From NCBI GenBank assembly GCA_035762825.1, contig DASUCI010000054.1, forward strand, positions 1-54,654: a stretch of DNA of 54,654 nt, read 5' to 3'. This document shows, in pieces, positions 22,707-53,536 of the stretch (positions are counted from its first letter, which is position 1; each line of letters opens with the position of its first letter). Under the pieces are notes generated by a model. The model was not told the origin of the DNA, ran no database searches, and saw nothing but the letters and a program-made list of their open reading frames with translations. The stretch comes from Gaiellaceae bacterium (lineage in GTDB: Bacteria > Actinomycetota > Thermoleophilia > Gaiellales > Gaiellaceae). The translations under genes were made by a program, and so were the position numbers.

Positions 22707-22723
22707 CTGCGTCCGAGTGCGAT

Positions 22724-23862: not shown

Positions 23863-25163
23863 CGTGCCTCTGCCCACTCGACGAGTGTGCGGTCCACGAG
23901 CGCCTCTGCGGATCCGATGTACCCGGCAGGGTCGAGGAGCTCGTCGAGCTCGGTCTCCGACAGAGCGACGCGCTTGTCGACGAGCAGCGCCTCCCGGAAC
24001 GAGCGAGCGCGCGCGGCCTCAGCAACGACGTCGTGAGCCTGGCTGCGTCCCAGGCGGGGTGTGAGCGCAAACGAGACGCGCTCCGCGACAACGAGCCCAC
24101 CGCTCGCCTCCAGGTTCGTCCGCATCCGCTCGGCGTCGACTTCGAGACCGGTCACGGCGTCCCCCGCGGCGGACGCCGCTCCGCCTGCGAACGCGAGCGC
24201 GCCGGAGAGCGCCGCCCACTCGGCGTGCCAGCCTCCCACCGCGCGCTCGTGCTCGTGCGCGAGCTCCCCGAGCAGGACGCCTGCGTGAGCGCTCGTGAGG
24301 CGCGCGCACGAGACCGCCAGGGTCGAGCGGACGGGATTTCGCTTCTGCGGCATGGTCGACGAGCGCCCGCCTGCCGCCTCCCTTACCTCGCCCACCTCGC
24401 TCTGGGCGAGGAGCACGAGGTCGCGGCCGACCTTCGCCGCTGCGCCGGCGACGCCTACGAGTGCCGCGCCGAGCTCCGCTACGCGCTGGCGATTCGTATG
24501 CCAGGGGAGCACGGGCTCCGCGAGCTCGAGCTCACGCGCGTAGAGACGGACCACCTCGAGCGCGTCGTCACCGAGCGCTGCGAGGGTCCCGGCGGCGCCA
24601 CCGAGCTGCGCTGCGAGTCGCTCGTCGCGCACCGCCGTGAGTCGCCGCCGCGCCTCGAGCAGCGCAACGAGCCAGCCCGCCGCCTTCAGCCCGAAGGTCG
24701 TGGGCACTGCCTGCTGCAGGAGGGTGCGCGCCGCCATGGGAGTCGACCGGTGGGCGCGTGCGAGCTCGGCGCATCCTTCGCCGAGTCGGTCGACCTCGGC
24801 GAGCACGAGTGCGACTGCACGACGAGAGACGAGCATCGCGGCCGTGTCGATGATGTCCTGGCTCGTCGCCCCGTGATGAACCCAGTCCGAGGCCTCGCCG
24901 CCGACCGCCTCGCGCAGCGCTCGGACGAGGGGCTCGGCCGGGTTCCCGACCGTGCGTCCTTTTTGCGCCAGCTCTTCCGGGTCGTACAGCTCCGCGCGAC
25001 ATGCCGCTCCGATCCGGGCCGCGGCCTCCTCCGGGACGAGCCCGACTGCGGCACTCGCCGTGGCAAGCGCGCGCTCCGCGTCCAGCATCCCCTGCAGCCA
25101 GGCGCGATCCGAGACCGCTTCTCGCAGCGCCCGCGGCACGAAGATGGCCGAGAACGGCGTCAC
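23859..25163 (-). CDS. pcaB: 3-carboxy-cis,cis-muconate cycloisomerase
   Basis: Fumarate-lyase superfamily signature GSSTMPQKRNP, HGATSQD and TNRQR. GTG 25163 overlaps the pcaG stop (GTGA). The longer ORF N-terminus is Arg/Pro-rich shadow. Confidence 0.85.
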   Translation of the reverse strand: MTPFSAIFVPRALREAVSDRAWLQGMLDAERALATASAAVGLVPEEAAARIGAACRAELYDPEELAQKGRTVGNPAEPLVRALREAVGGEASDWVHHGATSQDIIDTAAMLVSRRAVALVLAEVDRLGEGCAELARAHRSTPMAARTLLQQAVPTTFGLKAAGWLVALLEARRRLTAVRDERLAAQLGGAAGTLAALGDDALEVVRLYARELELAEPVLPWHTNRQRVAELGAALVGVAGAAAKVGRDLVLLAQSEVGEVREAAGGRSSTMPQKRNPVRSTLAVSCARLTSAHAGVLLGELAHEHERAVGGWHAEWAALSGALAFAGGAASAAGDAVTGLEVDAERMRTNLEASGGLVVAERVSFALTPRLGRSQAHDVVAEAARARSFREALLVDKRVALSETELDELLDPAGYIGSAEALVDRTLVEWAEAR

Positions 25164-25729
25164 ACCGCGAAGAACGTCGACTGGCCGCGGCCCTGGAGGA
25201 CGATGTCGAAGCGAAGCGCGCCGTCTTCCGCCCGCGCGACGAGCGTCGCCCGCTTCTCCGGCTCGAGGCCGAGGAGCAGGGGGTCCTCCGCGTTCGCGGC
25301 TTCCTCGTCGGGGAAGTACATGCGGGTCGCGACTCGCTTGAGGAGCCCGCGCGCGAAGACCCCGACGAGGAGGTGCGGCGCCTGGAGGTGTCCGTCCACC
25401 CACGGCACGCGGCCCGGCTTCACGGTGACGAAGTCGAAGCGGCCGCCGTCCTGGGTGGCCGAGCGGCCGAATCCCCAGAACCCGTCCTCGAGCGGGACGT
25501 CCTCACGGTCGTCCGCCGGATGCGCGTAGCGGCCCGTGGCATTCGCCTGCCAGATCTCGACCAGGCCGTCGGCCACCGGATCGCCTGCGCCGTCGAGGAC
25601 TACGCCCGAGATGCGGATGGCGCGCGGGTCGACCTCGTCCACCAGGCGGTTCGTGATCGGCCCGTCGACGAGGCCGATCGTGAGAAACGGCCCGGCGGTC
25701 TGGGACGGCGTGAGCACGAGCTCAGTCAT
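25160..25729 (-). CDS. pcaG: protocatechuate 3,4-dioxygenase alpha subunit
   Basis: [15 protein letters not shown]...[16 protein letters not shown]...APHLLVGVFARGL. ATG 25729 lies 2 nt after the pcaH stop. Confidence 0.85.
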   Translation of the reverse strand: MTELVLTPSQTAGPFLTIGLVDGPITNRLVDEVDPRAIRISGVVLDGAGDPVADGLVEIWQANATGRYAHPADDREDVPLEDGFWGFGRSATQDGGRFDFVTVKPGRVPWVDGHLQAPHLLVGVFARGLLKRVATRMYFPDEEAANAEDPLLLGLEPEKRATLVARAEDGALRFDIVLQGRGQSTFFAV

Positions 25730-26450
25730 CGTGCGGCTCCTCGAGCGGCGTCGGCGCACGGCCGCCCAGAACGATGTCGAAGCGAAACCCGAGCGCCCAG
25801 TCCGGCTTCGTCAGCTCCAGGTCGAACTCCGAGACGAGCCGTTGCCGGGCGCGCTCGTCCCGGATCGAGTTGAAGATCGGATCGAACGGGAAGAGCGGGT
25901 CGCCTGGGAAGTACATCTGCGTCACGAGCCGCTCCGCGAACGCGCGGCCGAACAGCGAGACGTGGATGTGCCGCGGACGCCACGCGTTCGCGTGGTTTCC
26001 CCACGGGTACGCGCCCGGCATGACAGTGACGAATCGGTACGTGCCGTCGGCCTCCGTCAGGCAGCGTCCGCCTCCCGAGAAGTTCGGGTCGAGCGGCGCG
26101 TCCCAGGTGTCGGCGACGTGGTCGTAGCGGCCGGCCGCGTTCGCCTGCCAGATCTCGACGAGCTGCCCGCGGAGGGGCTTCCCGTCCGAGCCGAGGACCC
26201 GACCGGTGACGACGATGCGCTGCCCGAGCGGCTCCCCCGCGTGCTGGCGGGTGAGGTCGGCGTCCGTTTCCGAGAGCGGGCCGTCGCCGTAGATAGGCCC
26301 CGTGACCTCGGAGAGCGAGGCCGGCAGGACGACAAGCGGTTCCTTCGGTGCACGCAGGCGCGTGCTCACGTACTCCGGGTAGAGGAGCGGCGGGTCGATG
26401 CCTGTCAGCGCGCTGTCAGGGACGCGAGCAAGAGCGGTCTCAGGCTGCAC
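25722..26450 (-). CDS. pcaH: protocatechuate 3,4-dioxygenase beta subunit
   Basis: [15 protein letters not shown]...[21 protein letters not shown] carries the iron-ligand Tyr/His region. GTG 26450 gives 242 aa and overlaps the pcaJ end by 11 nt. Confidence 0.85.
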
Positions 26451-27096
26451 GGCGATCCTCCAGGTCGACGTCGAAGGGAGCGCCGGTCGCGGCCCGCACT
26501 TCGTCGACGGTCGCGTCGTCGAGCAGCTCGGTGAGGACGAGGGCCCCCTCGCGGAACCGGAAGACAGCGAGCTCGGTGACGACAACGTCGGCGACACCGC
26601 GGGCCGTCAGCGGATAGGTGCACTCGCGCACGATCTTCGGCTCTCCCGTCGACGACGTCGAGGTCATCGTCACGATCACGCGGCGCGCGCCGACGACGAG
26701 GTCCATCGCGCCGCCGACGCCGAGCACGTCCTTACCCGGGACGGCCCAGTTTGCGATGTCGCCGGAGATCGAGACCTGCAACGCGCCGAGCACCGCAACG
26801 TCGATGTGCCCACCCCGGATCATCGCGAAGCTCTGGGCGCTGTCGAAGTACGCCGCGCCGGGGAGTGCAGTCACCGGCCGCTTCGCTGCGTCTATGAGAT
26901 CGGGGTCGAGCTCCTCCTCGCTCGGCCGTGGCCCGACTCCGAGGAGGCCGTTCTCCGTGTGCAGGAAGACGTCCGTTCCACCACCTAACAGTCCCGGTAT
27001 GAGGTTCGGAATGCCGATGCCGAGGTTGACGATCTCGCCCGGCCGCAGCTCCTGCGCCGCGCGCGCTGCGATTGCGGACTTGACGTCGCCGGTCAT
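26440..27096 (-). CDS. pcaJ: 3-oxoadipate CoA-transferase subunit B
   Basis: 218 aa with the class I CoA-transferase B signature (NLGIGIP...LHTENG..., GGAMDL). Confidence 0.85.
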
Positions 27097-27755
27097 CGCG
27101 ACAGCACGAGCTCGTCGACGTAGAGGTGTGGCGTATGGATCGACTCCGGCTCGAGCTCGCCCGCTGGCACGATCTCTCCCACCTCGGCGATTGTCACCCG
27201 TGCGGCTGTCGCCATCAACGGGTTGAAGTTGCGCGCAGTGCGCCGGTACCAGAGGTTGCCGAGCTCGTCGCCGCGCGCCGCGTAGACGAGTGCGACGTCC
27301 GCGTGGATCGGCCGTTCGAGCACGTACGGGACGCCGTCGATGACTCGCTCCTCCTTGCCCTCCGCGAGCAGCGTCCCCGCGCCGACCGGCGTGAGGAAGC
27401 CGGCGATCCCGGCGCCGCCCGCGCGGATCGCCTCGGCGAACGTCCCCTGCGGCACGAGCGTCGCCTCGATCTCGCCTGCGTTCACGGCCGCAACCGCCTC
27501 CGGGTTCGAGGTGAAGTACGACGAGATGCCACGCTTGATCCGCCCTTGGCGGAGCAGCTTCCCCAGGCCCCGGCCCGGCTCGCCGATGTTGTTCGAGACG
27601 ATCGTCAGCTCGTCGGCGTCGGAGCTCTCGGCGAGGGCGTCGATGAGCGTGAGCGGCGCGCCGACGAGCCCGAACCCGCCGACCATGACGGTGTCGCCCG
27701 AGCTGATCGCCGACACTGCCTCATCGGGCTCGATGGGGCCGCTCGCAATCGGCAT
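27093..27755 (-). CDS. pcaI: 3-oxoadipate CoA-transferase subunit A
   Basis: 220 aa ([15 protein letters not shown]...ELTIVSNN...). Its stop overlaps the pcaJ start (ATGA). Confidence 0.85.
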
Positions 27756-34344: not shown

Positions 34345-35739
34345 TCAGCTCACTGCGGCCTCCGTGCGCCACCCCTCGTGGTACGAGCTGCGTGCGACCT
34401 CGGAGTACGGGCAGGGGCTCACGATGGCGCGGATCTCCACCTGTCGGTGGCGCTCGACCACCGGCTTCGAGGACCCGCCGTCCTCCTCGCCCCAGACGAG
34501 AGTCAGCTCGGCGCCGATCTCCACGTCCACGTCGACCATCGCGAGCGAGAGGTACGAGCGCTCGTTGTAGCTGTACCCGGAGAACGTCGAGACGCCGACC
34601 GGCTCGCCGTCTCGGAGCACCTTGTCGTACGGCCACGTGGAGTAGTTCGAGAGCGGGATGTCGATGTACTTCGCGGGATCCCCCTTCTCGAAGAGCGAGC
34701 CCATGGCGTGCGCGACGTCCTCGCCGTTCCACGCGAGCGTGACCTTCTTCCGGCGCGGCCGGTCGGCCATCTCGAGGAGCGCCTCCCGCCCGACGAAGTC
34801 GTGGTCGAACTTCACGAACGGCCAGTACCCGAGGTCGTGCGGAGTGAGGTAGTAGTCCTCGATGTCGTCGGAGACGAAGCTGCCTCCGAGTGAGCCCGTA
34901 CCCTCGTACCCGTCGGCCGGCAGCCACTCGCGGTAGGCCCTCAGCTCCTCGCCGGTGAAGACGGCCGGGAGCGGGCACGGGATCCACCCCGACTCGAGCG
35001 TGTTGGTCGCGTACACGCGTGAGCCGACCTGGCGCAGCCCGAAGTCCCTGCCGGCCTCGACGATCGCGCCTCTCACGTCCTCACGCTCGGCCCATGGGCC
35101 CCAGAGCTCGAGCCCGGGCACGCCCGACATCCCGTGATGGAGCGCGCGCACCTTCCGCCCGCCGATCGTGAGCTCGCCCATGTTGAAGAACTTGATCTCG
35201 GGGAGGGGCCCGCCGTTCGCTCTCTCCAGCACCTGCATCGCCGTCGGCCCCTGGACCTGGAAGCGGAAGAGCTCGCGCCCGCCCGTCGGGTTGACTGCGG
35301 TTCGCTCGTCCCTCGAGACCTGCACGTCGTAGCCGCCCGTCTCAGCGTGGTACTGCACCCAGTTGTGCGCGGAGGGGCGTCCCACGAGCCGCGCCGTGTG
35401 GTCGTCCAGGTGGAAGAGGATCGCGTCTCCGATGACGTAGCCGTCGGGGTTGCACACGACGAGCTGCTTAGCCTTGTTCACCGCGAAGTTCTCGAAGGTG
35501 TTGACGCCGACATTGGAGAGGAGCTCGATCGTGCCCGGGCCCTCGATCTGGAGGTCCAGCATGTGGTGCGACTGGTCGAAGAGCGCGGACGTCTCACGCC
35601 AGGCCACCTGTTCGTCCCGCCAGTTCGAGAACTCGCTCGGCACCGCCGGGTAGACGTAGGGCCCTATCTGCGAGTTGCGCGCCATCTCCACGGCGCTGCC
35701 AACGGCCTGGAGCTTCTCGTCGAGGTTTCCATACGCCAT
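34345..35739 (-). CDS. tetrahydrofolate-dependent aryl O-demethylase, LigM/DesA-like (GcvT aminomethyltransferase fold)
   Basis: 464 aa, collinear from memory with Sphingobium LigM: VEMARNSQIGPYVYP..PSEFSNWRDEQ.AWR, FRFQVQGP, NTLESGWIPCPLPAVFTGEELRAYREWLPA, FVKFDHDFVGREAL, RKKVTLAWNGEDV, VSPCPYS. Confidence 0.85.
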   Translation of the reverse strand: MAYGNLDEKLQAVGSAVEMARNSQIGPYVYPAVPSEFSNWRDEQVAWRETSALFDQSHHMLDLQIEGPGTIELLSNVGVNTFENFAVNKAKQLVVCNPDGYVIGDAILFHLDDHTARLVGRPSAHNWVQYHAETGGYDVQVSRDERTAVNPTGGRELFRFQVQGPTAMQVLERANGGPLPEIKFFNMGELTIGGRKVRALHHGMSGVPGLELWGPWAEREDVRGAIVEAGRDFGLRQVGSRVYATNTLESGWIPCPLPAVFTGEELRAYREWLPADGYEGTGSLGGSFVSDDIEDYYLTPHDLGYWPFVKFDHDFVGREALLEMADRPRRKKVTLAWNGEDVAHAMGSLFEKGDPAKYIDIPLSNYSTWPYDKVLRDGEPVGVSTFSGYSYNERSYLSLAMVDVDVEIGAELTLVWGEEDGGSSKPVVERHRQVEIRAIVSPCPYSEVARSSYHEGWRTEAAVS

Positions 35740-35781: not shown

Positions 35782-37350
35782 TTATGAGCCGTCCGGTCCG
35801 CCCGCGGTTCCCTGCTCGCCGCGGGCGAGGTGGTCACGACCGAGGAACGTGTTCGCCCAGGCGCTTGTGCCCTGCAGCGCGTTGTCCTTGACGACGACGG
35901 GGCCGTCCAGCATCGACTCCTCCTCGCCGTAGGCCTTCAGTCGCTCGTACGCGTCCGACCAGATGCACTCCGTGTCGTACACCTCGCACAGCCCGTCGCG
36001 CGTCCCGCCGCACGGGCCGTTGCGCTGATTCTTCGCGCACTGCGACTCGGGGCAGACGTATGCGATCTCGGGAAGCGAGCAGTCGCCGCAGTCCTTGCAT
36101 CCGAACAGCGGCACCTTGGCGGTCTGCTCGAGGGCGTGGGCCACCCGGCGAACCGTCTTCGGGGCCTTGTCGATTCCGCTGTAGACACGCCGTCCGGTCT
36201 CGAACAGCGGGGCGTCGCGCGCGAACACCGTGCCGTGCAGGCGACGGCTGAGCCGGTACTTGACGGGAACGCGCAGCTCGGTCCGCCGCCGCCGCTTCGA
36301 CTCGAGGTACGCGGCGTTCACGGCGTCGGTCGAGAGGCCCGTCTCGGGGTCGCGCTCGAAGAAGTGGAACTCCTGGGGGCGCGCGAACTGGACCTCGCGT
36401 GCGAGGTCGCGCCAGTCGCCGGGGGCGAAGGCGTCGGCGCGGTCGATGATCTCGGCGAACGTCTCCGCAGGCATGTGGCCGCCGAGGTAGACGCCGTCGA
36501 AGCCGAGGCCGCGCACGACCGCGAGATGCTTCGAGGCGAGGTCGACGAAGAAGGCGCGGCCCTGGTCCGGGCTGGCGCCGTGCCGCTCCGCGAGCGCGAG
36601 CAGCTCGTCGGACACGAGGATGCCGGGGATGATCCCGCGGTGAAACGCGCGCGCGGCCGTGCGAGAGAGCAGATAGACGTTCCCGACGACGTGCAGGTCC
36701 AGGTCTTCGCGGCGGATCCAGCGGAGGAGCTCGTCGTCCTTGCGCGTGTTCCAGCCTGCCTGGTTGATGACGAAGCGCGCACCTGCGCGGACCTTCTTGC
36801 GCAGCTTGAAGTACTGGGGCATCACCTCGCGCTCGAGCAGCTTGTGGTTCGTGACGACGCAGCCGAGGAAGAAGTCGGTCCGCTCGAGAGGCGTCTCCGG
36901 CGTGCGCGTGTCGGGCAGACCGGCATTCATCTCCGAGAAGAGGCTGATGAGCCCCACCGAGTCGATGTCGAAGACGGGGGCCGCGAGACCTCGATGACCC
37001 ATCACCGGGTAGTCGCCCGACATCGCGAGCACGTTCTGGAAGCCCGCCGAGCTCAGCTGCCAGCCGCGGCTCTCGAGCGCGTTGCGATTCCAGTCCTTGC
37101 AGGCGAGGTGGATGATCACCTCCTGCCCGCGCGAGATGAGGTCGGTTCCGAGCGCGTCAGGCGAGAGCATCGCGTGCCCGCCGGGGTTGTCGGTGATCGA
37201 GAGGACGTCGATCCTCGGGTCGGCGGCGAGATCCCTCGCGAGAGCCAGCACCCGCGCCCCTCCTTCGGAGCTGATCGGGCCGCGGCTCGTGACGAGCTCC
37301 GCGGCCACGACGAAGCCGTCCGGCTGGGCGAGGGCGTCGCGGAAGCGCAC
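35782..37350 (-). CDS. metF: methylenetetrahydrofolate reductase fused to an MTHFR C-terminal (MetV-like, Cys-rich) domain
   Basis: 522 aa. The N-terminal ~300 aa form an MTHFR barrel (SITDNPGG..., LAMSGDYP). The C-terminus is Cys-rich (FGCKDCGDCSLPEIAYVCPESQCAKNQRNGPCGG...C), as in MetV. GTG 37350 lies 4 nt after the upstream stop. Confidence 0.75.
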   Translation of the reverse strand: MRFRDALAQPDGFVVAAELVTSRGPISSEGGARVLALARDLAADPRIDVLSITDNPGGHAMLSPDALGTDLISRGQEVIIHLACKDWNRNALESRGWQLSSAGFQNVLAMSGDYPVMGHRGLAAPVFDIDSVGLISLFSEMNAGLPDTRTPETPLERTDFFLGCVVTNHKLLEREVMPQYFKLRKKVRAGARFVINQAGWNTRKDDELLRWIRREDLDLHVVGNVYLLSRTAARAFHRGIIPGILVSDELLALAERHGASPDQGRAFFVDLASKHLAVVRGLGFDGVYLGGHMPAETFAEIIDRADAFAPGDWRDLAREVQFARPQEFHFFERDPETGLSTDAVNAAYLESKRRRRTELRVPVKYRLSRRLHGTVFARDAPLFETGRRVYSGIDKAPKTVRRVAHALEQTAKVPLFGCKDCGDCSLPEIAYVCPESQCAKNQRNGPCGGTRDGLCEVYDTECIWSDAYERLKAYGEEESMLDGPVVVKDNALQGTSAWANTFLGRDHLARGEQGTAGGPDGS

Positions 37351-37354
37351 GTCG

Positions 37355-38311
37355 TCAGCCCTCTCTGCCGACGTCGGGCGTTCCGTATGTGTGGAAGCTC
37401 TCGATCGTCTGCACGCCCCAGTACTGGCCCCGCGCGCGCTCTGCGGGGGTCCACGTGATGGGCTCGAAGTCCGGGTCGTACACGAAGTAGCCCCCGGTCG
37501 TGACCTCGATCCGGTTGCCTCCGGGCTCGAAGCCGTACAGGAAGAACCCTTGCGCGACTCCGTGTTTCGACGGTGCCGCTTCGATCGGGACGTCCGCGTC
37601 GACGAAGAGGTCCGCGGCCCGCAGGCACTCCTCGCGCGTGTCGACCCAGAAGGCGAGGTGGTGGAGCCGTCCCGTCGCGCCGTGGGCGTCCGCGACGTAG
37701 ATGAGCTCGTGCGCCGCGATCGTGAGGCTCATCCAGGCACCGGTCTCGGTTCCGTCGTCGAGCTCGATCCGCTCGTACAGGCGGTAACCGAGCACGTTCC
37801 TTGCGAACGTGCTGTTCGCGCGGACATCGGCCGCCAGCAGGTTCACGTGGTCGAGCCGCTTGACCGCCGCTCCCCTGCCGAGGTAGCGCTGTGGCTGATT
37901 CCTCCAGGACGGCCGCAGGTGCTTGGGCGGCTCGTAGCGCTCGGCCTCGTAATAGAGCTCGAAGACGTGGCCGTCGGGGTCCGTGAAGCGGTATGCCCGG
38001 CCGTGGCCTACGTCTCCTTCGATCCATCCGAGCCCGAGCCCCGTCGCCTCGACGGCCGCGACCCGGCGGTCGAGCGCCTCGGGGCTCCATGCCCGCAGCG
38101 CGACGTGCCCGAGCCCCGCCTGCGACGACTCCGTGAGCTTCAGGCTGTAGCGGAGGTAGTCGCCCCAGCCCCGGAGGAAGACGGACTGCCCGTCGCGGGC
38201 CTCTTCCTCCATGCCGAGCACGTCGGCGAAGAAGCGGAGGCTCGCCTCGGGCTTCGGGGTGAGGAGCTCCGCATGGCCGATCCGGGCGAGATCGTGGATC
38301 GGCTCGCTCAT
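37355..38311 (-). CDS. type I (VOC, two-domain, XylE-like) extradiol ring-cleavage dioxygenase
   Basis: 318 aa. Candidate 2-His-1-carboxylate ligands lie in RLDHVNL, RLHHLAFW and FEPGGNRIEV, spaced as in catechol 2,3-dioxygenases. ATG overlaps the upstream stop (ATGA). Confidence 0.8.
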   Translation of the reverse strand: MSEPIHDLARIGHAELLTPKPEASLRFFADVLGMEEEARDGQSVFLRGWGDYLRYSLKLTESSQAGLGHVALRAWSPEALDRRVAAVEATGLGLGWIEGDVGHGRAYRFTDPDGHVFELYYEAERYEPPKHLRPSWRNQPQRYLGRGAAVKRLDHVNLLAADVRANSTFARNVLGYRLYERIELDDGTETGAWMSLTIAAHELIYVADAHGATGRLHHLAFWVDTREECLRAADLFVDADVPIEAAPSKHGVAQGFFLYGFEPGGNRIEVTTGGYFVYDPDFEPITWTPAERARGQYWGVQTIESFHTYGTPDVGREG

Positions 38312-38925
38312 TGCTCGACGAGCTGCCGCAGGCCGTCGAGGTCGTACGAGCGCTCGCCGGCCTCGAGCTTCGCTCGCTTCTCGCGCTCGCGCGCCTCGCG
38401 CGCGAGGCCAGCCTTCAGAACCTCGTCGATCCGCTCCCGCTCGACGACGACTGCTCCGTCCGCGTCGAGCACGACCACGTCTCCCTGACGGATCGTCGCC
38501 CCGGCGACCTCGACGGGCTCGCCGATCACGCCCGGAGCCTGCTTCTCGGCTCCGGTGACGCGGACGTACCGCGCCCAGATCGGCAACCCGACAGCTCGGA
38601 GCTCGTCGAGGTCGCGCACCGCAGCGTCCACGAGCAGCGCCGCGAGGCCTGCGACCTTCGCCTGCGTCGCAAGCAGCTCGCCGACGAGTGCGACCGGCCT
38701 CGGCTCGGGCATCGTGAGGACGAGCACCTCGCCAGGCTCCGCCTCGGCCACGGCCGCGTGGACCATGAGGTTGTCGTCCTGGCCGCAGCGCACGGTCCGC
38801 GCCGCGCCGGCCGCACGCGAGCCCGGCACGACCTGGAGCAGCGGCACGTCGACGACGCGGGCGCGGCCCGCCGCCTCGTGCACCGTGGCGGTTCCCAGCC
38901 GGGCGAGCTCGGTGAATTCCGTCAC
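38308..38925 (-). CDS. RraA-fold class II aldolase, LigK/GalC-like (4-carboxy-4-hydroxy-2-oxoadipate aldolase / oxaloacetate decarboxylase)
   Basis: 205 aa (TATVHEAAG..., DDNLMVHAAV..AEPGEVLVL, GELLATQAKVAGLAALLVDAAVRD...GLPIWAR, GDVVVLDADGAVVV). GTG 38925 overlaps the upstream stop (GTGA). Confidence 0.7.
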   Translation of the reverse strand: MTEFTELARLGTATVHEAAGRARVVDVPLLQVVPGSRAAGAARTVRCGQDDNLMVHAAVAEAEPGEVLVLTMPEPRPVALVGELLATQAKVAGLAALLVDAAVRDLDELRAVGLPIWARYVRVTGAEKQAPGVIGEPVEVAGATIRQGDVVVLDADGAVVVERERIDEVLKAGLAREAREREKRAKLEAGERSYDLDGLRQLVEQ

Positions 38926-39635
38926 AGGGCGCTCACCACCTGCGGCGTGACGCGCTGGAACGCCTCGGCGTGGCGAATCGCCGCGTTCCCCGACGAGCGC
39001 CGGGCGTGGTTGGCGCGCTGCTCGGCGCGCTGCGAGTAGTACGTGTGGAGGTACGACTGCGCCTTCATCTCCGCCATCGCGGCGTTCTTCTGCTCGATCA
39101 CCGGCGTGATGTCCACGAAGGTCGTGGGCACGAAGTTGCACAGCTCGGGCTGGTGCGGCTCGAAGAGCAGCAGCTCCGGCGGCTCGACCGTCTCGAACGC
39201 GCTCGGGACGCCCGCGCCGGCGGCGAGTGCGCGAGCCTTCTCGACGGCGAAGAACGCGGCTGCGTGGTCCGGGTTGAACGGGTCGCGATCGGTGTGTGTG
39301 AGGACCACGTCGGGAGCGAACGCGCGGATCCCGTCGGCGATCGCACCGAGTGCTTCGCTGTCGACCTCGAGAGGGTAGTCCCCGAGATCGAGGCACTCGA
39401 ACTCGGCACCGAGCGCCGCAGCCGCCCGCTCCGCCTCGCCGTGGCGGATCTCCTTCACGCGCTCGACGGTCTGTCCCTCCTTCTTCCAGAGCTCGCCGGA
39501 CTCCCCGCGCTCGCCGTAGGAGAGCGCGAGCACGCGCGCCGTGCCGCCGTTCGTCGTCGCGACTGCGATCGCGCCACCGGCCCGCCAGACGAAGTCGGCG
39601 GAGTGCGCGCCGATCACGAGGAGCTTGCGGCTCAC
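38922..39635 (-). CDS. PIG-L/LmbE family protein, GalB-like candidate 4-oxalomesaconate hydratase
   Basis: 237 aa (LLVIGAHSADFVWRAGGAIA, LSYGERGES, DPFNPDH, FEPHQPE). GTG 39635 overlaps the upstream stop (GTGA). Confidence 0.65.
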   Translation of the reverse strand: MSRKLLVIGAHSADFVWRAGGAIAVATTNGGTARVLALSYGERGESGELWKKEGQTVERVKEIRHGEAERAAAALGAEFECLDLGDYPLEVDSEALGAIADGIRAFAPDVVLTHTDRDPFNPDHAAAFFAVEKARALAAGAGVPSAFETVEPPELLLFEPHQPELCNFVPTTFVDITPVIEQKNAAMAEMKAQSYLHTYYSQRAEQRANHARRSSGNAAIRHAEAFQRVTPQVVSAL

Positions 39636-40558
39636 GAGGCACCGGCCAGGCGTCGCGACTGCCCCACGATCAGCTCGCGCACCTCGTCCTCGTCGAACCG
39701 TGCGCCGAGCAGGCGGTCGGCCCAGAGCGCGAGCCCGTCCTCGACCGGCGGATAGTCGGGGTTCCCGCAGTCGCTCGAGAAGAGCGAGTGCTCGACGCCG
39801 ACCGCGCGCACGCCGTCGAAGACGTGCTCCCACTCGGTCTTTCCGGACAGCGGCGTGCTGAGGCACCGCTCGAGCAGGCACCCGCGCTCCGCGAGAGTGC
39901 GTTGATCGTCGAGCGAGAAGTTCTGACAGGGGAACTCCGGGTGCGTGACGACGATGCGTGCCACGCCTTCCTCGAGCGCTGCGTCGACGACCGCGAAGGT
40001 GTCGTCGCGACCGAGGTGGCCCGTGGCGAGTACGAGGTCGTGGCGTGCGATCGCGCGCAGCACGTCACGCGCCTCGGGAAGAAGGCGCCCGTCGGGATCG
40101 GTGACGTGTACCGCGTCGATGCTGAGACCCAGGCCCCGCAGCTCGTGCTGGAGCTGGGCCCACTGCGGCACCTTGTCTCCGTCCCTCGGCTGGGTCCTCC
40201 CGGCCGTCTCCGCGGGGGAGTCGACCGTCGGCATCCAGACGATCGCGGCGCCCTCGCGCGCTGCGATCTCGACGGCGAGGGCATTCATGCCGCCGACGGC
40301 CCAGTTCAGCGTGAGCGTGCCGACCACCTGCACGTCGGCGACGAGACTCGAGACGACCTGCGCGCGCTCGGCGGTCGAGGTGTAGTGCGACTTCAGGGCA
40401 AAGCCCGCGAGCCCGAGCTCGGCGAAGCGCTGCGCGAGCGTGCGGTCGTCGATCCGTCGCCGGGGCACGTCCGGCGCGACGTGGACGTGCAGGTCGTAGG
40501 CGCCCTCCACGAGCACCCGGGCCCGTTCGCTCGGAGAGGTCGCGACGACCTGGGTCAC
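39632..40558 (-). CDS. amidohydrolase-superfamily-like TIM-barrel protein (DxHxH), function unassigned
   Basis: 308 aa with N-terminal YDLHVHVAPD, then KSHY, ATGH and SDCG as candidate metal-ligand positions. GTG 40558 overlaps the upstream stop (GTGA). Confidence 0.5.
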   Translation of the reverse strand: MTQVVATSPSERARVLVEGAYDLHVHVAPDVPRRRIDDRTLAQRFAELGLAGFALKSHYTSTAERAQVVSSLVADVQVVGTLTLNWAVGGMNALAVEIAAREGAAIVWMPTVDSPAETAGRTQPRDGDKVPQWAQLQHELRGLGLSIDAVHVTDPDGRLLPEARDVLRAIARHDLVLATGHLGRDDTFAVVDAALEEGVARIVVTHPEFPCQNFSLDDQRTLAERGCLLERCLSTPLSGKTEWEHVFDGVRAVGVEHSLFSSDCGNPDYPPVEDGLALWADRLLGARFDEDEVRELIVGQSRRLAGAS

Positions 40559-41352
40559 GATCGCACCCCGCGTCCGTGCGAAGCGAGCTCGGCCAGCTGC
40601 GCGGCGCTGGCGGATGCGATGCGCGGCTCGACTCCGAGCTCGACCAGCAGGTCGCGCGCGGCTTCCATCTCGTCGACGCGACGCGCGGCGTGCGTCCGGC
40701 TACCCTCGAGTGCCCGCTCGAGATACGGCCGGCCGATCATTCCGGCGATCTCCTTCGCGAGCCAGTCCGCGTGGCCCGCGATCTCCGCCGCCTGCATGCT
40801 CTCGACCACGGCGGCGGCGAGCCCCTTCATGAACACCGAGCGCACCAGCTTGAGCGCAGCTGCGTCCCCGGCGTGCTCCGAGAGCACCTCGACGGGCATC
40901 CCGAGGGGCTCGAACAGCCCGGCGAACGCCGCCGCACCCGGCCCCGACGCGAGCACGGGAGCGCGCAGCCCGTGCTGCGGGAGCGGCCCGAGGAGGGCGA
41001 CGTCGACGAACGGCAGCGCAGCCTCCCCGACGAGCGCCGCGAGCTCGCGCTTCAGGTCCGGCGAGGCGGTGTTCAGGTCCGCGTAGATCGTCGACGCCGA
41101 GAGCACGGGGAGGACTTGGGCCGCCGCGTCGAGCGCGGCCCGCGCGCCGTTCACGCTCAACACGACGTCGCTGCCGGCTGCTGCCGAGCCGGCATCGGAA
41201 GCCCTCAAGATCGACGGGACGTCACGGTCGGGATCGGGGTCGTAGCCGCGCACCTCCACACCGGCGGCGGCGAGGTCGGCCGCGAGGCGGCTCCCGGCCT
41301 CACCGAGACCGAGCACCGCGACGGCCCGTGCGCTTCGATCCACGGCTGACAT
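40555..41352 (-). CDS. NAD(P)-dependent dehydrogenase, 6-phosphogluconate-dehydrogenase-type Rossmann domain with DUF1932-like C-terminus
   Basis: 265 aa starting MSAVDRSARAVAVLGLGEAGSRLAADL (GxGxxG). The C-terminal helical domain is (KLVRSVFMKGLAA). The upstream 327 aa of ORF 40555..42333 are shadow sequence antisense to the GntR and ligM-like genes. Confidence 0.6.
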   Translation of the reverse strand: MSAVDRSARAVAVLGLGEAGSRLAADLAAAGVEVRGYDPDPDRDVPSILRASDAGSAAAGSDVVLSVNGARAALDAAAQVLPVLSASTIYADLNTASPDLKRELAALVGEAALPFVDVALLGPLPQHGLRAPVLASGPGAAAFAGLFEPLGMPVEVLSEHAGDAAALKLVRSVFMKGLAAAVVESMQAAEIAGHADWLAKEIAGMIGRPYLERALEGSRTHAARRVDEMEAARDLLVELGVEPRIASASAAQLAELASHGRGVRS

Positions 41353-41406: not shown

Positions 41407-42069
41407 ATGGCCGTCACCTCGAGCTACGACGCCCTCCGCGCGGCCATCGTCCGCGGCGACATCGCGCCCGACGCGCGCCTCGTCGAAGCCGACCTCTCGA
41501 CGACGTTCGCGATGTCGCGCGGGGCCGTGCGCACCGCGCTCATCCGCCTCGAGCAGGACGGGCTCGTCGTCCGCGAGCCTCATCGGGGCGCACGCGTTCG
41601 GCGCGTCTCGGACGCCGAGGCGGTCGAGATCCTGCAAGCTCGCGCGGTTCTCGAAGGCCTCGCCGTCCGGCAGGCCGCCGACCGCATCGACCATGCGGGC
41701 GCCGCCCGTCTCCAGAGCTGCATCGCCCGTCAACGCGAGCTTCTCGAGAACGGCGACCTCCTCGGCGCGTCGGAGGTGAACGCCGAGCTGCACGCCACGC
41801 TGCTCGAGCTCTCCGGCCACGCGACCGCTATGCGTCTCATCGAGAGCCTGAACGCCCAGACGGTCCGCTACCAGTACCGCACGATCCTCATCCCGGGGCG
41901 TCCGGGCGCGTCCGTGGCTGAGCACGCTGCGATCGTCGAGGCGGTGACCGCCGGGAACGAGGACGAGGCGGAGCTGGCGATGCGGAGACATCTCCTCAAC
42001 GTCGCCGAGGCAGTGCGGGGTGGACGGCTGCCGGGCGGTATCGACAATGCGAGCCGCGGTGTCCTCTAG
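41407..42069 (+). CDS. GntR family transcriptional regulator (FadR/FCD subfamily)
   Basis: wHTH (EADLSTTFAMSRGAVRTALIRLEQDGLV) plus an FCD domain (NAELHATLLEL...EHAAIVEAV). Confidence 0.85.
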   Translation: MAVTSSYDALRAAIVRGDIAPDARLVEADLSTTFAMSRGAVRTALIRLEQDGLVVREPHRGARVRRVSDAEAVEILQARAVLEGLAVRQAADRIDHAGAARLQSCIARQRELLENGDLLGASEVNAELHATLLELSGHATAMRLIESLNAQTVRYQYRTILIPGRPGASVAEHAAIVEAVTAGNEDEAELAMRRHLLNVAEAVRGGRLPGGIDNASRGVL

Positions 42070-43456
42070 TCCTAGCCTCGAAGATCTGCTGGCCACGGCC
42101 GGGAACCCGGTCGAGCTGCTCCGCAACTCGCCGGCGGGCCCCAACGTGTACCCGGTCGTGCCTCCGGAGTTCACGAACTGGCGCGACGAGCAGAGGGCGT
42201 GGCAGACGACGTGCGTCCTCTTCAACCTCTCGTACCACATGAACGACCTGGCGGTCGAGGGCCCGGATGCCCTCGAGCTCCTCTCCCGGCTCGCCGTCAA
42301 CAGCTTCGACGGATTCGCGGGCGATCGTGCCAAGCACTACGTGCCGTGCAGCCCCGACGGATATGTGATCGGCGACGTCATTCTCTTCGCGCTGGGCGAG
42401 AACCGATTCAACCTCGTCGGCCGCGCCCCGGCCCTCAGCTGGATCATGTACCACGCGGAGACGGGCGGCTACGACGTCGCGGTCGAGCTCGACGTGAGGT
42501 CTGCGCTGCGCACCGACGGCCGCAGGAGGTCGTATCGCTTCCAGGTGCAAGGCCCCACCGCGATGCAGGTGATCGAGAAGGCGCTCGGCGGCACTCCGCC
42601 CGAGCTCGAGTTCTTCCATACGACGCCGGTGACCATCGCCGGCACGACCGCCGGCGCCTTGCGGCACGGCATGGTCGGACAACCGGGCTGGGAGCTCTTC
42701 GGGCCCTGGGACGACGGGGAGGCCGTGCACGAGGCGCTCGTCGCGGCCGGGGAGGAGTCCGGGCTCCGGCTCGCGGGTGCACGCGCGTACTCGTCCAACA
42801 CGCTCGAGTCCGGCTGGATCCCCTCGCCGCTTCCGGCCGTGTACTCCGGTGAGAGGATGAAGGCCTACCGCGAATGGCTGCCCGCGGCGGGGTACGAGGG
42901 GTCCGCGTCCATCGGCGGCAGCTTCGTCTCCGCGGACATCGAGGACTACTACTTCACTCCCTGGGACCTCGGATACGGGAGCTACGTCAAGTTCGACCAC
43001 GACTTCATCGGGCGCGAGGCGCTGGAGGCGATGGCGAAGGGAGAGCACCGCCGGAAGGTCACGCTGGCGCTCGACGACGAGGACGTCACCCGCACGATCG
43101 CAACCATGTTCGAGCAGGACGAGCGTGCGAAGTTCATCGACTGGCCGTCGGCGGTGTACTCGATGCATCAGTACGACCGGGTGACCGTGGAGGGGGAGAC
43201 CGTCGGCGTCTCGACCTGGATCGGCTACAGCGCGAACGAGGGCAAGCTGCTCACGCTCGCCGTGCTGGACGCCGAGCATGCCGAGCCCGGCACCGACGTG
43301 ACGTTCGTCTGGGGAGAGGAGGACGGCGGCACGGCCAAGCCCACAGTGGAGCCACACGTGCAGGTCGAGCTCGGCGCCGTGGTCAGCCCGGCGCCCTACG
43401 TGGAAGCCGTACGCAGGTCCTACGCACCCGGCGGCTGGCGCGCACAACATCCCTAG
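42047..43456 (+). CDS. tetrahydrofolate-dependent aryl O-demethylase, LigM/DesA-like, paralogue 2
   Basis: 469 aa from MRAAVSSSPSLEDLL. It shares the blocks of the 34345..35739 product (ELLRNSPAGPNVYPVVPPEFTNWRDEQRAWQ, YRFQVQGPTAMQVIEK, NTLESGWIPSPLPAVYSGERMKAYREWLPA, VKFDHDFIGREALEAM, RKVTLA). It overlaps the GntR end by 23 nt. Confidence 0.85.
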   Translation: MRAAVSSSPSLEDLLATAGNPVELLRNSPAGPNVYPVVPPEFTNWRDEQRAWQTTCVLFNLSYHMNDLAVEGPDALELLSRLAVNSFDGFAGDRAKHYVPCSPDGYVIGDVILFALGENRFNLVGRAPALSWIMYHAETGGYDVAVELDVRSALRTDGRRRSYRFQVQGPTAMQVIEKALGGTPPELEFFHTTPVTIAGTTAGALRHGMVGQPGWELFGPWDDGEAVHEALVAAGEESGLRLAGARAYSSNTLESGWIPSPLPAVYSGERMKAYREWLPAAGYEGSASIGGSFVSADIEDYYFTPWDLGYGSYVKFDHDFIGREALEAMAKGEHRRKVTLALDDEDVTRTIATMFEQDERAKFIDWPSAVYSMHQYDRVTVEGETVGVSTWIGYSANEGKLLTLAVLDAEHAEPGTDVTFVWGEEDGGTAKPTVEPHVQVELGAVVSPAPYVEAVRRSYAPGGWRAQHP

Positions 43457-50737: not shown

Positions 50738-52707
50738 CCGAGTTCCTGCAGCTTGTCGTCGTCGGGCTCTCGACCGGGTCGGCGTTCGCGCTCGTCGGCA
50801 TGAGCCTCGTGCTCGTCTATCGGACGACGGGGATCGTGAACTTCGCGCAAGGCGTCTTCGCGGTGATCGGCGGACTGTTCACGTTCCAGCTCTCCGACGA
50901 CATGCCGCTCGCGCTCGCGACGCTCGTGTCCGTCCTGCTCGCCGCGTTCCTCGCCTCGCTTCTCGCCGTCGTCGCCGTCGGCTTCCGCGGGCGGACGACC
51001 GGTCTCGCGAGCACGATCATCACGCTCGGCGCCGCCTTTCTGGCGCAGGCGCTGCTCCTGCTCAAGTTCGGGGACATCCCGCGCAGCTATCCCGGCATCT
51101 CCGACCGGGCGTGGAGCATCGGTGGCGTACTCGTCCAGCCGCAGTACGTGCTCATCGCAGGGGTCGCGCTCGCCTGCGCCGTCGCACTGACGCTCTTCCT
51201 CCGCTGGACCATCGTCGGACAGGCGCTCGTCGCGTGCGCGGACTCGCGCCGCGCCGCCGAGCTCGTCGGCCTCAACATCCGCTCGCTCGCTGTCGTCGCG
51301 TTTGCCGGTGCAGGCGCTCTCTGCGCGCTCGGCGGCGCGCTGCTCGCGCCGAGCAACCCGATGACGTACAGCTCGGACGTCGCGATCACGGTGAACGGCT
51401 TCGCCGCGGCCGTCTTCGGCGGCCTCGGCTCGATCCGCCTCGCGCTGCTCGGGGGCTACGCGCTCGGGATCCTCGAGCAGCTCGTCGTCGGCTACGTCGA
51501 CCCGCAGTACAGCCTGATCATCGCCCTGATCGTCATGCTCGTCCTCATCGGCTGGCGCTCGCGCGCGGAGATCGCGAGTGCGTCGCACGAGGCGCGGGCG
51601 GTCGTCCAGCGCGCACGCGTGCCGTGGCCGGCGCCGGTCCGGATCGGGCTGATCCTCGCCGGCGCCGTCTTCGCCTGTTGGCTTCCGTACCAGCTCTCGA
51701 CTTTCGACGTGGCGCTGTACGACCGCATGGGTCTGTATGCGCTCGTGACGATCGGCCTGACGCTCCTCATGGGGTATGCCGGGCAGATCTCGCTCGGGCA
51801 GGGGGCGTTCTTCCTCGTCGGCGCGTACACGTCGGCGATCCTCACCGTCGGCATCGACCCCGACACGCGCTTCGTCGATCCCGGTGCCGGCGTCTCGCCG
51901 GTGCTCGCCGTGCTCGCCGCGCCCGTGGTCGCGGCAGTGCTCGCGGCCGTGATCGGCGTCCCGCTTCTCCGCCTCCACGGCCATTACCTCGCGTTCGCGA
52001 CGCTCGCGCTCCACCTCATCGCGTTCTCGGTTCTCTCGGCCTGGGACCGGTTCACGGGCGGCCAGTACGGGATCTCGGTCACGAAGCCGCTCACAGTCTT
52101 CGGTCACGATCTTCGCGGGCCGCTGCATGCAGCAGTCGTCTGGGCCGTCGTTGCGGTCGCACTGCTCCTCGCGACCAACCTCGTCCACTCGCGGGTCGGG
52201 CGCGCGTTGCAGGCGATCGCCACGGACGAGCAGTCGGCCGCCGCGTCGGGCATCCCGGTCGCGAGCTACAAGCTCCGGCTGTTCGTCTTGGCGGCCGCTC
52301 TCGCCGGGCTCGGCGGAGGGCTGTTCACGTTCTCGTTCCTCATCGTCTCCCCCGAGGCGTTCCCCATCGTGCTGAGCATCGAGTTCGTCGTCATGGTCGC
52401 CGTCGGCGGACTGGGAAACATCTACGGCGCGGTCGCGGGGGCGGTCGCCATCCTCTACCTCGAGCAGAAGCTCCGCGACCTGGGAACGCGGCCGGACCTG
52501 TTCGGCTGGGACTTGCCCGACGCGGCTCCGACCGTATTCTCGTTCGGCGTCTTCGGGCTGATCCTGATGGCGATCATGCTCTTCTTCCCGCGCGGGCTGC
52601 TTCCGGCGCTCGGCGACGTGACCGCGCGCCTCTGGGAGAAGGTCCGCAGTGCCCGGCGTCCGGGCGCTACTCCGCCAGCCCCAGCAGCCGGGCAGCGTTC
52701 TGCTTGA
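50734..52707 (+). CDS. fused LivH-LivM type ABC permease
   Basis: 657 aa. The N-terminal ~290 aa are LivH-like (GIVNFAQG). The C-terminal ~340 aa are LivM-like (LLMGYAGQISLGQGAFFLVGAY). Confidence 0.8.
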   Translation: MTEFLQLVVVGLSTGSAFALVGMSLVLVYRTTGIVNFAQGVFAVIGGLFTFQLSDDMPLALATLVSVLLAAFLASLLAVVAVGFRGRTTGLASTIITLGAAFLAQALLLLKFGDIPRSYPGISDRAWSIGGVLVQPQYVLIAGVALACAVALTLFLRWTIVGQALVACADSRRAAELVGLNIRSLAVVAFAGAGALCALGGALLAPSNPMTYSSDVAITVNGFAAAVFGGLGSIRLALLGGYALGILEQLVVGYVDPQYSLIIALIVMLVLIGWRSRAEIASASHEARAVVQRARVPWPAPVRIGLILAGAVFACWLPYQLSTFDVALYDRMGLYALVTIGLTLLMGYAGQISLGQGAFFLVGAYTSAILTVGIDPDTRFVDPGAGVSPVLAVLAAPVVAAVLAAVIGVPLLRLHGHYLAFATLALHLIAFSVLSAWDRFTGGQYGISVTKPLTVFGHDLRGPLHAAVVWAVVAVALLLATNLVHSRVGRALQAIATDEQSAAASGIPVASYKLRLFVLAAALAGLGGGLFTFSFLIVSPEAFPIVLSIEFVVMVAVGGLGNIYGAVAGAVAILYLEQKLRDLGTRPDLFGWDLPDAAPTVFSFGVFGLILMAIMLFFPRGLLPALGDVTARLWEKVRSARRPGATPPAPAAGQRSA

Positions 52708-53536
52708 GGACGAGCGGCCGGACGTCGTCCCTGAAGTCCGCGCGCGCGAAGTCCTCGAGCCACCGGTCGGGCGTGATCAACGGGAAGTCCGACCCGAAGA
52801 GCACGCGGTCGCGCAGCAGCGTGTTCGCGTACTGGACCAGCTGCGGCGGGAAGTACTTCGGCGACCAGCCAGAGAGATCGATGTAGACCTGCTCCTTGTG
52901 CAGCGCGACCGAGATAGCCTCGTCCTGCCAGGGGAACGAGGGATGAGCGAGCACGATCTTCAGCTCGGGGAAGTCGACCGCGACGTCGTCCACGTACATC
53001 GGGTTCGAGAACTTGAGCCGGATGCCGCCTCCGCCCGGAAGGCCGGAGCCGATTCCCGAATGCCCCGTGTGGAAGAGCGCGGGCACGCCCGCCTCGGCGA
53101 CCACCTCGTACAGCGCGTAGAAGGCGCGATCGTTGGGATAGAACGCCTGCACGTTCGGGTGGAACTTGAACCCCTTGACGTCGTAGTCGCGGACGAGCCG
53201 CTTCGCCTCCTCCACCGCACGCGCGCCTTTGTTCGGGTCGATCGACGCGAACGGGATGAGCACGTCCGGATTCGCCGCCGCGACCTCGGCGATCTCTTCG
53301 TTCGGCACTGCCGGGCGCCCGGTCACCGTCTCCGCGTCGACGGTGAAGATGACCGCCGCAAGCTTGCGCTCGCGGTAGTAGGCCGCCACGTCCTCCACGG
53401 TCGGCAGCGCGTGCTCGCCGAAGTACGTGGCCGCCGCCGCGCGCCACTCCGGCCGCAGCCCGTCCTCGCCCGCGCGCCCGACCTCCGCGTGGACGTGGAC
53501 GTCGATCGCCTCGACGGCTGCGACGTCGATGGTCAC
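52667..53536 (-). CDS. amidohydrolase family protein (Amidohydro_2-like; CouO-like candidate)
   Basis: 289 aa from VTIDVAAVEAIDVHVHAE (HxH), then FHTGHSG, LAHPSFPW and GSDFP. GTG 53536 overlaps the SDR stop (GTGA). Confidence 0.7.
   Translation of the reverse strand: MTIDVAAVEAIDVHVHAEVGRAGEDGLRPEWRAAAATYFGEHALPTVEDVAAYYRERKLAAVIFTVDAETVTGRPAVPNEEIAEVAAANPDVLIPFASIDPNKGARAVEEAKRLVRDYDVKGFKFHPNVQAFYPNDRAFYALYEVVAEAGVPALFHTGHSGIGSGLPGGGGIRLKFSNPMYVDDVAVDFPELKIVLAHPSFPWQDEAISVALHKEQVYIDLSGWSPKYFPPQLVQYANTLLRDRVLFGSDFPLITPDRWLEDFARADFRDDVRPLVLKQNAARLLGLAE

Follow-up and report, generated by a model that had tools for sequence, protein, structure and literature searches.

A DUF1932-type dehydrogenase and a DUF6282 protein heading a GalB-type operon of soil Gaiellaceae are candidates for the steps between ring cleavage and hydration

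Introduction

Which enzymes connect ring cleavage to the GalB-type hydratase in a meta-cleavage operon that begins with two genes of biochemically uncharacterized families? This question is raised by a 54,654-nucleotide stretch of DNA (here called the window; G+C content, ~70%) from a Gaiellaceae metagenome-assembled genome that is 74% complete (GenBank assembly GCA_035762825.1, contig DASUCI010000054.1). On its minus strand, a run of seven genes, A to G, extends from position 41352 down to 34345 and encodes, in this order, proteins A and B, a GalB-type hydratase, a 4-carboxy-4-hydroxy-2-oxoadipate aldolase, a type I extradiol dioxygenase, an MTHFR protein, and the O-demethylase LigM. A preliminary description of the sequence had viewed A and B as possible analogues of LigC, the dehydrogenase of the protocatechuate 4,5-cleavage product (CHMS), and of LigI, the hydrolase of 2-pyrone-4,6-dicarboxylate (PDC).

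In sphingomonads, ring cleavage of 3-O-methylgallate yields the methyl ester CHMOD, which cyclizes nonenzymatically to PDC (PMC8091115; PMC6888825) or, alternatively, is hydrolyzed by DesC (PMC8091115; PMC6888825; bioRxiv 10.1101/160747). Since CHMOD arises from 3-O-methylgallate, a methoxy-fed pathway needs a hydrolase that a pure gallate pathway does not. Moreover, the oxidation of a lactol to a lactone by an A-type enzyme would create the need for a lactonase.

Based on family, fold, linkage, and distribution analyses, we lean toward B being the hydrolase that supplies GalB with 4-oxalomesaconate from PDC and/or CHMOD, which is LigI-like and perhaps DesC-like work. A LigC-like function of A as a CHMS dehydrogenase is possible but doubtful. 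The joint reading, with B as the hydrolase and A as the dehydrogenase, is put forward tentatively, at a level it owes to its stronger B half.

Results

Protein B has the barrel and active-site layout of the amidohydrolase superfamily

Residues 21 to 30 of protein B read YDLHVHVAPD, and profile searches place the protein in DUF6282 (PF19799; 208.9 bits versus a cut-off of 26.8, profile positions 1 to 196). Its AlphaFold2 model, with a predicted local distance difference test (pLDDT) score of 95.5, consists of eight strand-helix units that form a (beta/alpha)8 barrel. When this model was searched against 48,161 representative chains, it matched more than 50 members of the amidohydrolase superfamily at Z scores of 16.5 to 20.1, including the dipeptidase 6vgo (Z 20.1), the Escherichia coli phosphotriesterase-homology protein 4lef (Z 19.7), TatD (Z 19.1), the Listeria lactonase 3pnz (Z 18.6), and the LigI-type chains 4d8l, 4i6k, and 2ffi (Z 16.5 to 17.7). 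No single characterized relative stands out in these fold searches, which point to membership in the superfamily only.

The residues conserved among 68 homologues, down to approximately 30% identity, are D22, H24, H26, K56, H58, H181, H206, E230, and D263; of these, H24/H26, H181, H206, and D263 are retained in at least 90% of the sequences. In the model, the conserved positions map to the C-terminal ends of strands 1, 2, 5, 6, 7, and 8. The resulting layout has HxH at strand 1, one His each at strands 5 and 6, and Asp at strand 8, as is canonical for the metal and acid-base residues of this superfamily. Together, barrel and residue set identify B as an amidohydrolase-superfamily protein and, as modeled, B is probably a metal-dependent hydrolase. 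In addition, four arginines (R34, R35, R65, and R101) are invariant in the orthologous group and would suit a polycarboxylate substrate.

A sequence search of the PDB with B gave no match, and a protein-atlas search returned only further DUF6282 clusters. Neither A nor B matches the PrpF family (PF04303).

Protein A is a member of the beta-hydroxyacid dehydrogenase superfamily

Protein A starts MSAVDRSARAVAVLGLGEAGS and is encoded by the leading gene of the operon, which begins 54 nt from a divergent GntR gene. It matches NAD_binding_2 (PF03446; 36.3 bits, cut-off 21) and, across residues 192 to 254, DUF1932 (PF09130; 34.9 bits, cut-off 25). Beyond these two domains, the Pfam scan gave only a subthreshold 2-Hacid_dh_C match and no Gfo/Idh/MocA domains. 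Against the characterized equivalogs of the beta-hydroxyacid dehydrogenase (beta-HAD) superfamily, namely, HIBADH, L-threonate dehydrogenase, and sulfolactaldehyde reductase, the best score was 22.7 bits (TIGR01692; cut-off, 291.6). The nearest structures by sequence, with E values of 1e-25 to 8.5e-20, are the structural-genomics entries 3qsg (Alicyclobacillus), 4ezb, and 1i36 (MTH1747). They share the two-domain architecture of A, have no assigned function, and give no clue to its substrate.

The AlphaFold2 model of A (pLDDT, 89.7) matches 3qsg (Z 28.0), 1i36 (Z 27.0), the Mycobacterium tuberculosis HIBADH 5y8g (Z 25.2), and 3cky (Z 23.3), as well as tartronate-semialdehyde reductase-type enzymes and 2-(hydroxymethyl)glutarate dehydrogenase (Z of approximately 23). 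Across 23 orthologues, the GLGEAG motif (G15-x-G17-E-A-G) and D38 after strand 2 are kept, Lys168 within a KLxRS motif is invariant, and the basic residues R171, K176, H221, R224, and R225 are kept as well. The Rossmann motif, the helical C-terminal domain, and the position of the lysine identify A as a member of the beta-HAD superfamily, whose enzymes oxidize C-OH to C=O. By its position, K168 would be the catalytic lysine of the family. Asp38 directly after strand 2 suggests, on general knowledge of Rossmann folds, the use of NAD+, so that A is predicted to be probably NAD+ preferring.

These assignments bear out the preliminary description, which had read A as a 6PGDH-type Rossmann protein with a DUF1932-like tail and B as a protein of about 300 aa with a TIM-barrel signature, and had proposed hidden Markov model searches to fix both families. 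It had also called the families essentially uncharacterized biochemically. In agreement with this, full-text literature searches returned nothing relevant for DUF1932 and nothing for DUF6282.

A and B are linked to each other and to the GalB-type hydratase and aldolase genes

Within the window, the first five genes of the operon overlap by four bases each: GTGA at A/B (40558-40555), B/C (39635-39632), and C/D (38925-38922), and ATGA at D/E (38311-38308). The operon is translationally coupled, and A and B are cotranslated. A-B-C-D-E(-F)-G is the usual gene order among 80 related Gaiellaceae and Thermoleophilia genomes. To cover the phylum, an even sample of 401 Actinomycetota genomes was surveyed, 27 of which encode a DUF6282 protein above the cut-off. 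Every B orthologue with at least 46% identity in this sample adjoins C and D, and DUF6282 paralogues of about 30% identity occur in unrelated contexts, with molybdenum hydroxylases, purine-type permeases, CoA-transferases, and cupins.

For a pooled linkage count, we considered the 76 loci in which B is flanked on either side by 5 kb or more. The companions of B are C (74/76), D (73/76), E (71/76), and A (68/76). Of the 11 loci from outside the Gaiellaceae-like group, 6 contain A; in other lineages, the gene order varies, with B-C-D-E-A in family f19 and B-C-D-A in G065. A thus shifts position within the cluster yet stays with B; it was seen in no PrpF-type or LigB-type cluster and was found only together with B. 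Overall, A often accompanies B but can be dispensed with and is thus accessory rather than a core component. This status fits the rescue or admission of protocatechuate-derived CHMS and fits other accessory roles as well.

G065 is a 2.4-Mb actinobacterial genome (53% G+C, 100% complete) in which GntR-B-C-D-A is followed by a thiamine-diphosphate enzyme (L014, contig C2:29450-33310). With the window proteins as queries, neither an E-like extradiol dioxygenase nor a LigM homologue was found in this genome. In two metagenome loci (L181:5287-12932 and L183:1-7657), A lies divergent to R-PrpF-B-C-D and an ABC importer of the NitT/TauT type, with no dioxygenase in the cluster. The clusters of G065 and of these two loci fit the uptake of a ring-opened or lactone substrate, possibly PDC.

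Several DUF6282 paralogues were observed beside other enzymes. A 616-aa fusion of an HpcH/HpaI class II aldolase to a DUF6282 part (53% identical to B) occurs on eight contigs (e.g., L110:6455-8305 and L111 to L113), flanked by a cupin, a type I extradiol dioxygenase, a metallo-beta-lactamase (MBL)-fold protein, and an amidase, with no GalB gene there. On 12 contigs, a 42%-identical paralogue is located between a carboxylate transporter of the CitMHS/Na-sulfate-symporter type and a dehydrogenase gene of the Iso_dh (isocitrate/isopropylmalate) family (L125:7376-11023), a locus that may serve a lactone or hydroxy-tricarboxylate pathway. Another paralogue (49% identical) adjoins a class II fumarase. 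These contexts point to polycarboxylic acid or lactone chemistry near aldolase or dehydrogenase steps. GntR-DUF6282 fusions (P0247 and P0249) and a DUF1932-tail-DUF6282 protein (P0050) occur in only one or a few records, which run across neighboring genes, and were treated as gene-call or frameshift artifacts.

Part of this evidence can also be read in the reverse order, with B opening a lactone, ester, or cyclic amide and A then oxidizing or reducing the resulting hydroxy acid or semialdehyde, or with A acting on the product of the aldolase step. Such a scheme would accommodate the nearest characterized fold neighbors of A (HIBADH, tartronate semialdehyde reductase, and 2-(hydroxymethyl)glutarate dehydrogenase), the DUF6282 paralogues beside the Iso_dh dehydrogenase and CitMHS transporter, beside fumarase, or fused to the HpcH aldolase near an extradiol dioxygenase, and the B-C-D-A cluster of G065 in a genome where no E-like dioxygenase was found. 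However, between the cleavage of gallate or protocatechuate and 4-oxalomesaconate, no intermediate is known that would have to be hydrolyzed and then oxidized, and a role on the product side would be equally useful in PrpF- or LigB-type clusters, yet A is found only with B. We therefore consider this order quite improbable. The fallback of the preliminary description, in which A and B oxidize and open a different intermediate, is conceivable.

Cluster variants suggest that the B step is distinct from tautomerization

In the phylum sample, clusters containing GalB fall into three types. The first contains B, usually together with A and E (nine genomes). The second has the order R-C-D-PrpF-E without A or B (four large genomes of f27), and the third combines a LigB-type dioxygenase with C and D and has neither PrpF nor B (two f15 genomes). 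B-type clusters usually lie near LigM/DesA-type demethylases, and both PrpF-type genomes checked for a LigM/DesA homologue lack one. A PrpF gene was not found in five near-complete genomes of the first type, searched genome-wide, nor in the genome of the window as assembled.

This distribution is relevant to a gallate-only route, in which E would cleave gallate to 4-oxalomesaconate, B would be a nonhomologous substitute for the GalD/LigU isomerase that converts the keto form into the form hydrated by GalB, and A would be accessory and not obligatory. The lack of PrpF in the five near-complete B-C-D genomes and in the 74%-complete genome of the window fits such a substitution, as do the four f27 genomes, in which PrpF accompanies an orthologous dioxygenase and both A and B are missing. 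DesA and LigM can yield gallate, the window also encodes the protocatechuate ortho pathway, and A is dispensable in relatives, all of which would agree with this route as well. Set against this, L181 and L183 each contain both B and PrpF. Therefore, the B step is probably distinct from tautomerization, and PrpF and B can act side by side. The f15 clusters manage without either gene, so a dedicated isomerase is not universal. Furthermore, B keeps the full hydrolase-type metal and acid-base set, and the close linkage of A and B would be left unexplained. We consider the isomerase route, the foremost of the alternatives, unlikely. By the same token, the notion of B as a clean nonorthologous replacement of PrpF, suggested by the C, D, E, and R genes that the first two cluster types share, is weakened by L181 and L183, which have both genes, and by the f15 genomes, which have neither.

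We also built a maximum likelihood tree of 38 dioxygenases, looking for a clade specific to clusters with A that would hint at protocatechuate rather than gallate specificity. No such clade emerged; sequences from clusters that have A, lack A, or contain PrpF are intermixed. Two loci encode, besides the E orthologue, a second and very divergent extradiol dioxygenase downstream of the aldolase (L180:12708 and L191:11701; branch length, 1.67). L180 also carries an HpaB-type hydroxylase, which could turn protocatechuate into gallate.

The operon is surrounded by demethylase genes and an ortho-cleavage gene set

The features of the window are summarized in Table 1. The hydratase, aldolase, and dioxygenase genes downstream of B, as well as the GTGA coupling of the gene pair to them and its place at the head of the operon (39632-41352), are as the preliminary description had given them. 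For gene D, the NCBIfam profiles NF006731 (166 bits) and TIGR02798 (150 bits) both score below their equivalog cut-offs. The closest solved relative of E is PDB 9wgj (E value of 3e-122), deposited as a "catechol 1,2-dioxygenase," a name ill suited to a two-domain VOC extradiol enzyme. Literature searches on 9wgj, on type I gallate dioxygenases, and on GalB with PIG-L returned nothing relevant. Upstream of A, the opposite (plus) strand carries the GntR/FCD regulator gene and the DesA gene; an orthologue of the regulator accompanies the cluster in further lineages.

Table 1 Features of the window, with positions on the 54,654-nucleotide stretch
Feature	Coordinates	Strand	Family or best match
Gene A, NAD-binding dehydrogenase, beta-hydroxyacid dehydrogenase superfamily, 265 aa	40555-41352	-	NAD_binding_2 + DUF1932
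Gene B, candidate lactone/ester hydrolase, (beta/alpha)8 barrel, 308 aa	39632-40558	-	DUF6282 PF19799, 208.9 bits
Gene C, GalB-type (PIG-L family) 4-oxalomesaconate/4-carboxy-2-hydroxymuconate hydratase	38922-39635	-	Pfam PIG-L; PDB 5cgz E 2.3e-57, full length
Gene D, RraA-like class II 4-carboxy-4-hydroxy-2-oxoadipate aldolase/oxaloacetate decarboxylase	38308-38925	-	PDB 3noj E 3.4e-39
Gene E, two-domain VOC (type I) extradiol dioxygenase that opens the ring	37355-38311	-	TIGR03211 330.6 bits (cut-off 320.2)
Gene F, MTHFR with C-terminal Cys-rich DUF5981, methyl-tetrahydrofolate recycling	35782-37350	-	Pfam MTHFR + DUF5981
Gene G, LigM-type tetrahydrofolate-dependent vanillate/3-O-methylgallate O-demethylase	34345-35739	-	NF047885 665.9 bits (cut-off 580)
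Gene R, GntR/FCD regulator, divergent from A	41407-42069	+	Pfam GntR + FCD
Gene H, DesA-type syringate O-demethylase	42020-43456	+	NF047633 802.9 bits (cut-off 800)
pobA, pcaD, pcaB, pcaG, pcaH, pcaJ, pcaI, complete protocatechuate ortho-cleavage set	21546-27755	-	
Amidohydro_2 gene in a hydroxycinnamate (cou-like) module	52667-53536	-	BB4693 (3irs) E 4e-23

A distance of 7 kb separates the ortho-cleavage set from the meta operon, so that two ring-opening routes for lignin monomers are encoded within 55 kb. Of five genomes of B-cluster relatives that were checked, four contain pcaH. No canonical LigI was found: the sole Amidohydro_2 protein of the window matches 3irs rather than LigI. This protein resembles the uncharacterized BB4693 and shows a weak LigW match.

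Genes A to E each have matches of 95 to 100% identity among short soil RNA contigs. In four soil metatranscriptome libraries from two studies, they cover parts of E, D, and C, and in library X6, they also cover B (39704-39878 and 39930-40081) and A (40742-40906). These contigs are scattered pieces of 150 to 290 nt at a depth of 2 to 8, from which an operon transcript is not demonstrable and among which uncovered parts carry no meaning. They are a weak sign of transcription, with DNA carry-over possible.

Discussion

A possible route through PDC

From the folds, conserved residues, linkage, and distribution reported above, we infer the following substrates, step order, and cofactor preference. 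A and B would be enzymes of the lower pathway of syringate and vanillate. B would act after ring cleavage and before the GalB-type hydratase, hydrolyzing PDC, and perhaps also CHMOD, to 4-oxalomesaconate/4-carboxy-2-hydroxymuconate. A would carry out the LigC reaction, in which the cyclic hemiacetal of CHMS is oxidized to PDC, and would thereby admit LigM-made protocatechuate into the same route, with the main traffic being syringyl.

The two halves of the LigC/LigI proposal of the preliminary description fare differently. The assignment of B as a LigI-type enzyme is the better supported one, considering its barrel, its arginines, its adjacency to the GalB and aldolase genes, and its co-occurrence with PrpF. 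A LigC-type function of A is chemically reasonable and agrees with the linkage in 68 of 76 loci; it is weakened by relatives that lack A, by the interleaved dioxygenase tree, and by the pca route.

Several observations weigh against the proposed route. First, the presence of pobA, pcaHG, pcaB, pcaD, and pcaIJ in the window, together with pcaH in most of the relatives checked, means that protocatechuate has an alternative outlet, and the aldehyde intermediate may never arise in the operon. Second, with DesA and LigM, the operon looks mainly like a route for syringate, 3-O-methylgallate, and gallate, for which no dehydrogenase is required. The two demethylases could even convert syringate fully to gallate, the cleavage of which needs no dehydrogenase and, in principle, no hydrolase. 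Third, A is missing from G145, a 100% complete genome with an R-B-C-D-E cluster (best genome-wide match, E value of 3e-6), and from the loci L180 and L194, which have flanks of 8 kb; L180 and L191, which has A, are near-identical sisters on the dioxygenase tree. Fourth, the dioxygenase of the PrpF-type clusters is orthologous to E and nested within the B-type clade, which suggests that the ring-cleavage product can be 4-oxalomesaconate itself. Finally, B gave no match to Amidohydro_2 (PF04909) at an E value of 0.01 or better. Its model resembles dipeptidases, TatD, and phosphotriesterase-like proteins at least as closely as it resembles LigI, with the LigI-type chains ranking 23rd to 49th by Z score among its fold matches.

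In G145, the B-C-D-E cluster is followed by an Amidohydro_2 gene (363 aa; L021:14607-15698) and a major facilitator superfamily transporter gene. The Amidohydro_2 protein could be a decarboxylase or a LigI/LigJ-type enzyme alongside DUF6282.

Comparison with known systems

The preliminary description had stated that neither protein resembles LigC or LigI. This holds for the sequence families, with B in DUF6282 and LigI in Amidohydro_2 and no detectable sequence relationship between them. It does not hold for the fold and catalytic scaffold of B, which are those of LigI and of many other amidohydrolase-superfamily members to the same extent. The barrel of B aligns with LigI of Sphingobium sp. 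SYK-6 (4d8l) over 240 residues at 3.4 Å (Z 16.5), and both proteins have HxH on strand 1 and His and Asp on later strands. In addition, LigI stands directly before 4-oxalomesaconate hydration, the same place that is proposed for B. LigI works without a metal, whereas B, known from its sequence and model, retains a fuller ligand set (K56/H58, H206, and E230).

LigC of the same strain belongs to the Gfo/Idh/MocA superfamily, in contrast to the 6PGDH-type NAD_binding_2 and DUF1932 architecture of A. By sequence, both are NAD(P)-dependent Rossmann enzymes, and both genes are located next to those of a ring-cleavage dioxygenase and a lower-pathway hydrolase. The conversion of a lactol to a lactone is an alcohol-type oxidation, in principle feasible for beta-HAD enzymes. 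Differences are that LigC prefers NADP+, whereas Asp38 of A suggests NAD+, and that A is dispensable in some relatives.

Compared with the gal cluster of Pseudomonas putida KT2440 (GalA, GalD, GalB, and GalC), C is a clear GalB orthologue and D is a GalC/LigK-type aldolase, with the dioxygenase gene adjacent. However, the dioxygenase is of the VOC type I instead of the LigB type, no PrpF/GalD gene was found, the gal cluster contains no equivalents of A and B, and folate-dependent demethylases are attached to the present operon.

Another functional parallel might be sought in DesC and DesD of Novosphingobium aromaticivorans, the CHMOD methylesterase and a glutathione-transferase-type isomerase. 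They are likewise an accessory pair of the syringyl branch that acts after ring cleavage and before 4-oxalomesaconate, from families that, judged by description only, are unrelated to those of A and B. As their counterparts, B would be a CHMOD methylesterase forming 4-oxalomesaconate, and A would resolve a CHMOD stereoisomer or side product in a host without glutathione-dependent isomerases. Growth of N. aromaticivorans on sinapate needs desC, and the effect of desD is only moderate (bioRxiv 10.1101/160747). This pattern of one essential and one merely helpful member mirrors that of B, which is always present, and A, which is common but dispensable. The DesA, LigM, and folate-recycling genes that flank the operon and the hydrolase-type active site of B are also consistent with such a pair. 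However, the importer clusters without a dioxygenase or demethylase (L181, L183, and G065) would never meet the methyl ester, and cis-trans isomerase activity is not known to us from any beta-HAD-type enzyme. Moreover, CHMOD cyclizes by itself to PDC (PMC8091115), so a PDC hydrolase would suffice. Counterparts of DesC and DesD are, in our judgment, very unlikely, and the reading of B as a PDC and/or CHMOD hydrolase with A as a CHMS dehydrogenase remains the one we favor.

Implications

A wider proposal, which we regard as questionable, is that the DUF1932 dehydrogenase and the DUF6282 hydrolase form a previously unrecognized lactol-dehydrogenase/lactonase module. Together with the VOC dioxygenase and the PIG-L hydratase, this module would rebuild the protocatechuate-4,5/3-O-methylgallate route almost wholly from non-lig families, and it would be the main means by which abundant soil Gaiellaceae and other Actinomycetota use lignin monomers of the G and S types.

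Among the uncultured actinobacteria of soil, Gaiellaceae and related Thermoleophilia rank with the commonest, and the operon is present in at least 80 of their species-level genomes and in further actinobacterial lineages. If B were an isomerase, or if A were irrelevant to the pathway, the finding would shrink to an ordinary variant of the gallate pathway. If B is indeed a PDC/CHMOD hydrolase and A a CHMS dehydrogenase, this would provide the first function for two DUF families with thousands of members each. PDC is a target bioplastic monomer, and a new pair of PDC-forming and PDC-opening enzymes would be of practical use. It would also mean that genome-based counts of lignin-monomer-using soil bacteria are too low, since they are based on ligC, ligI, and ligAB.

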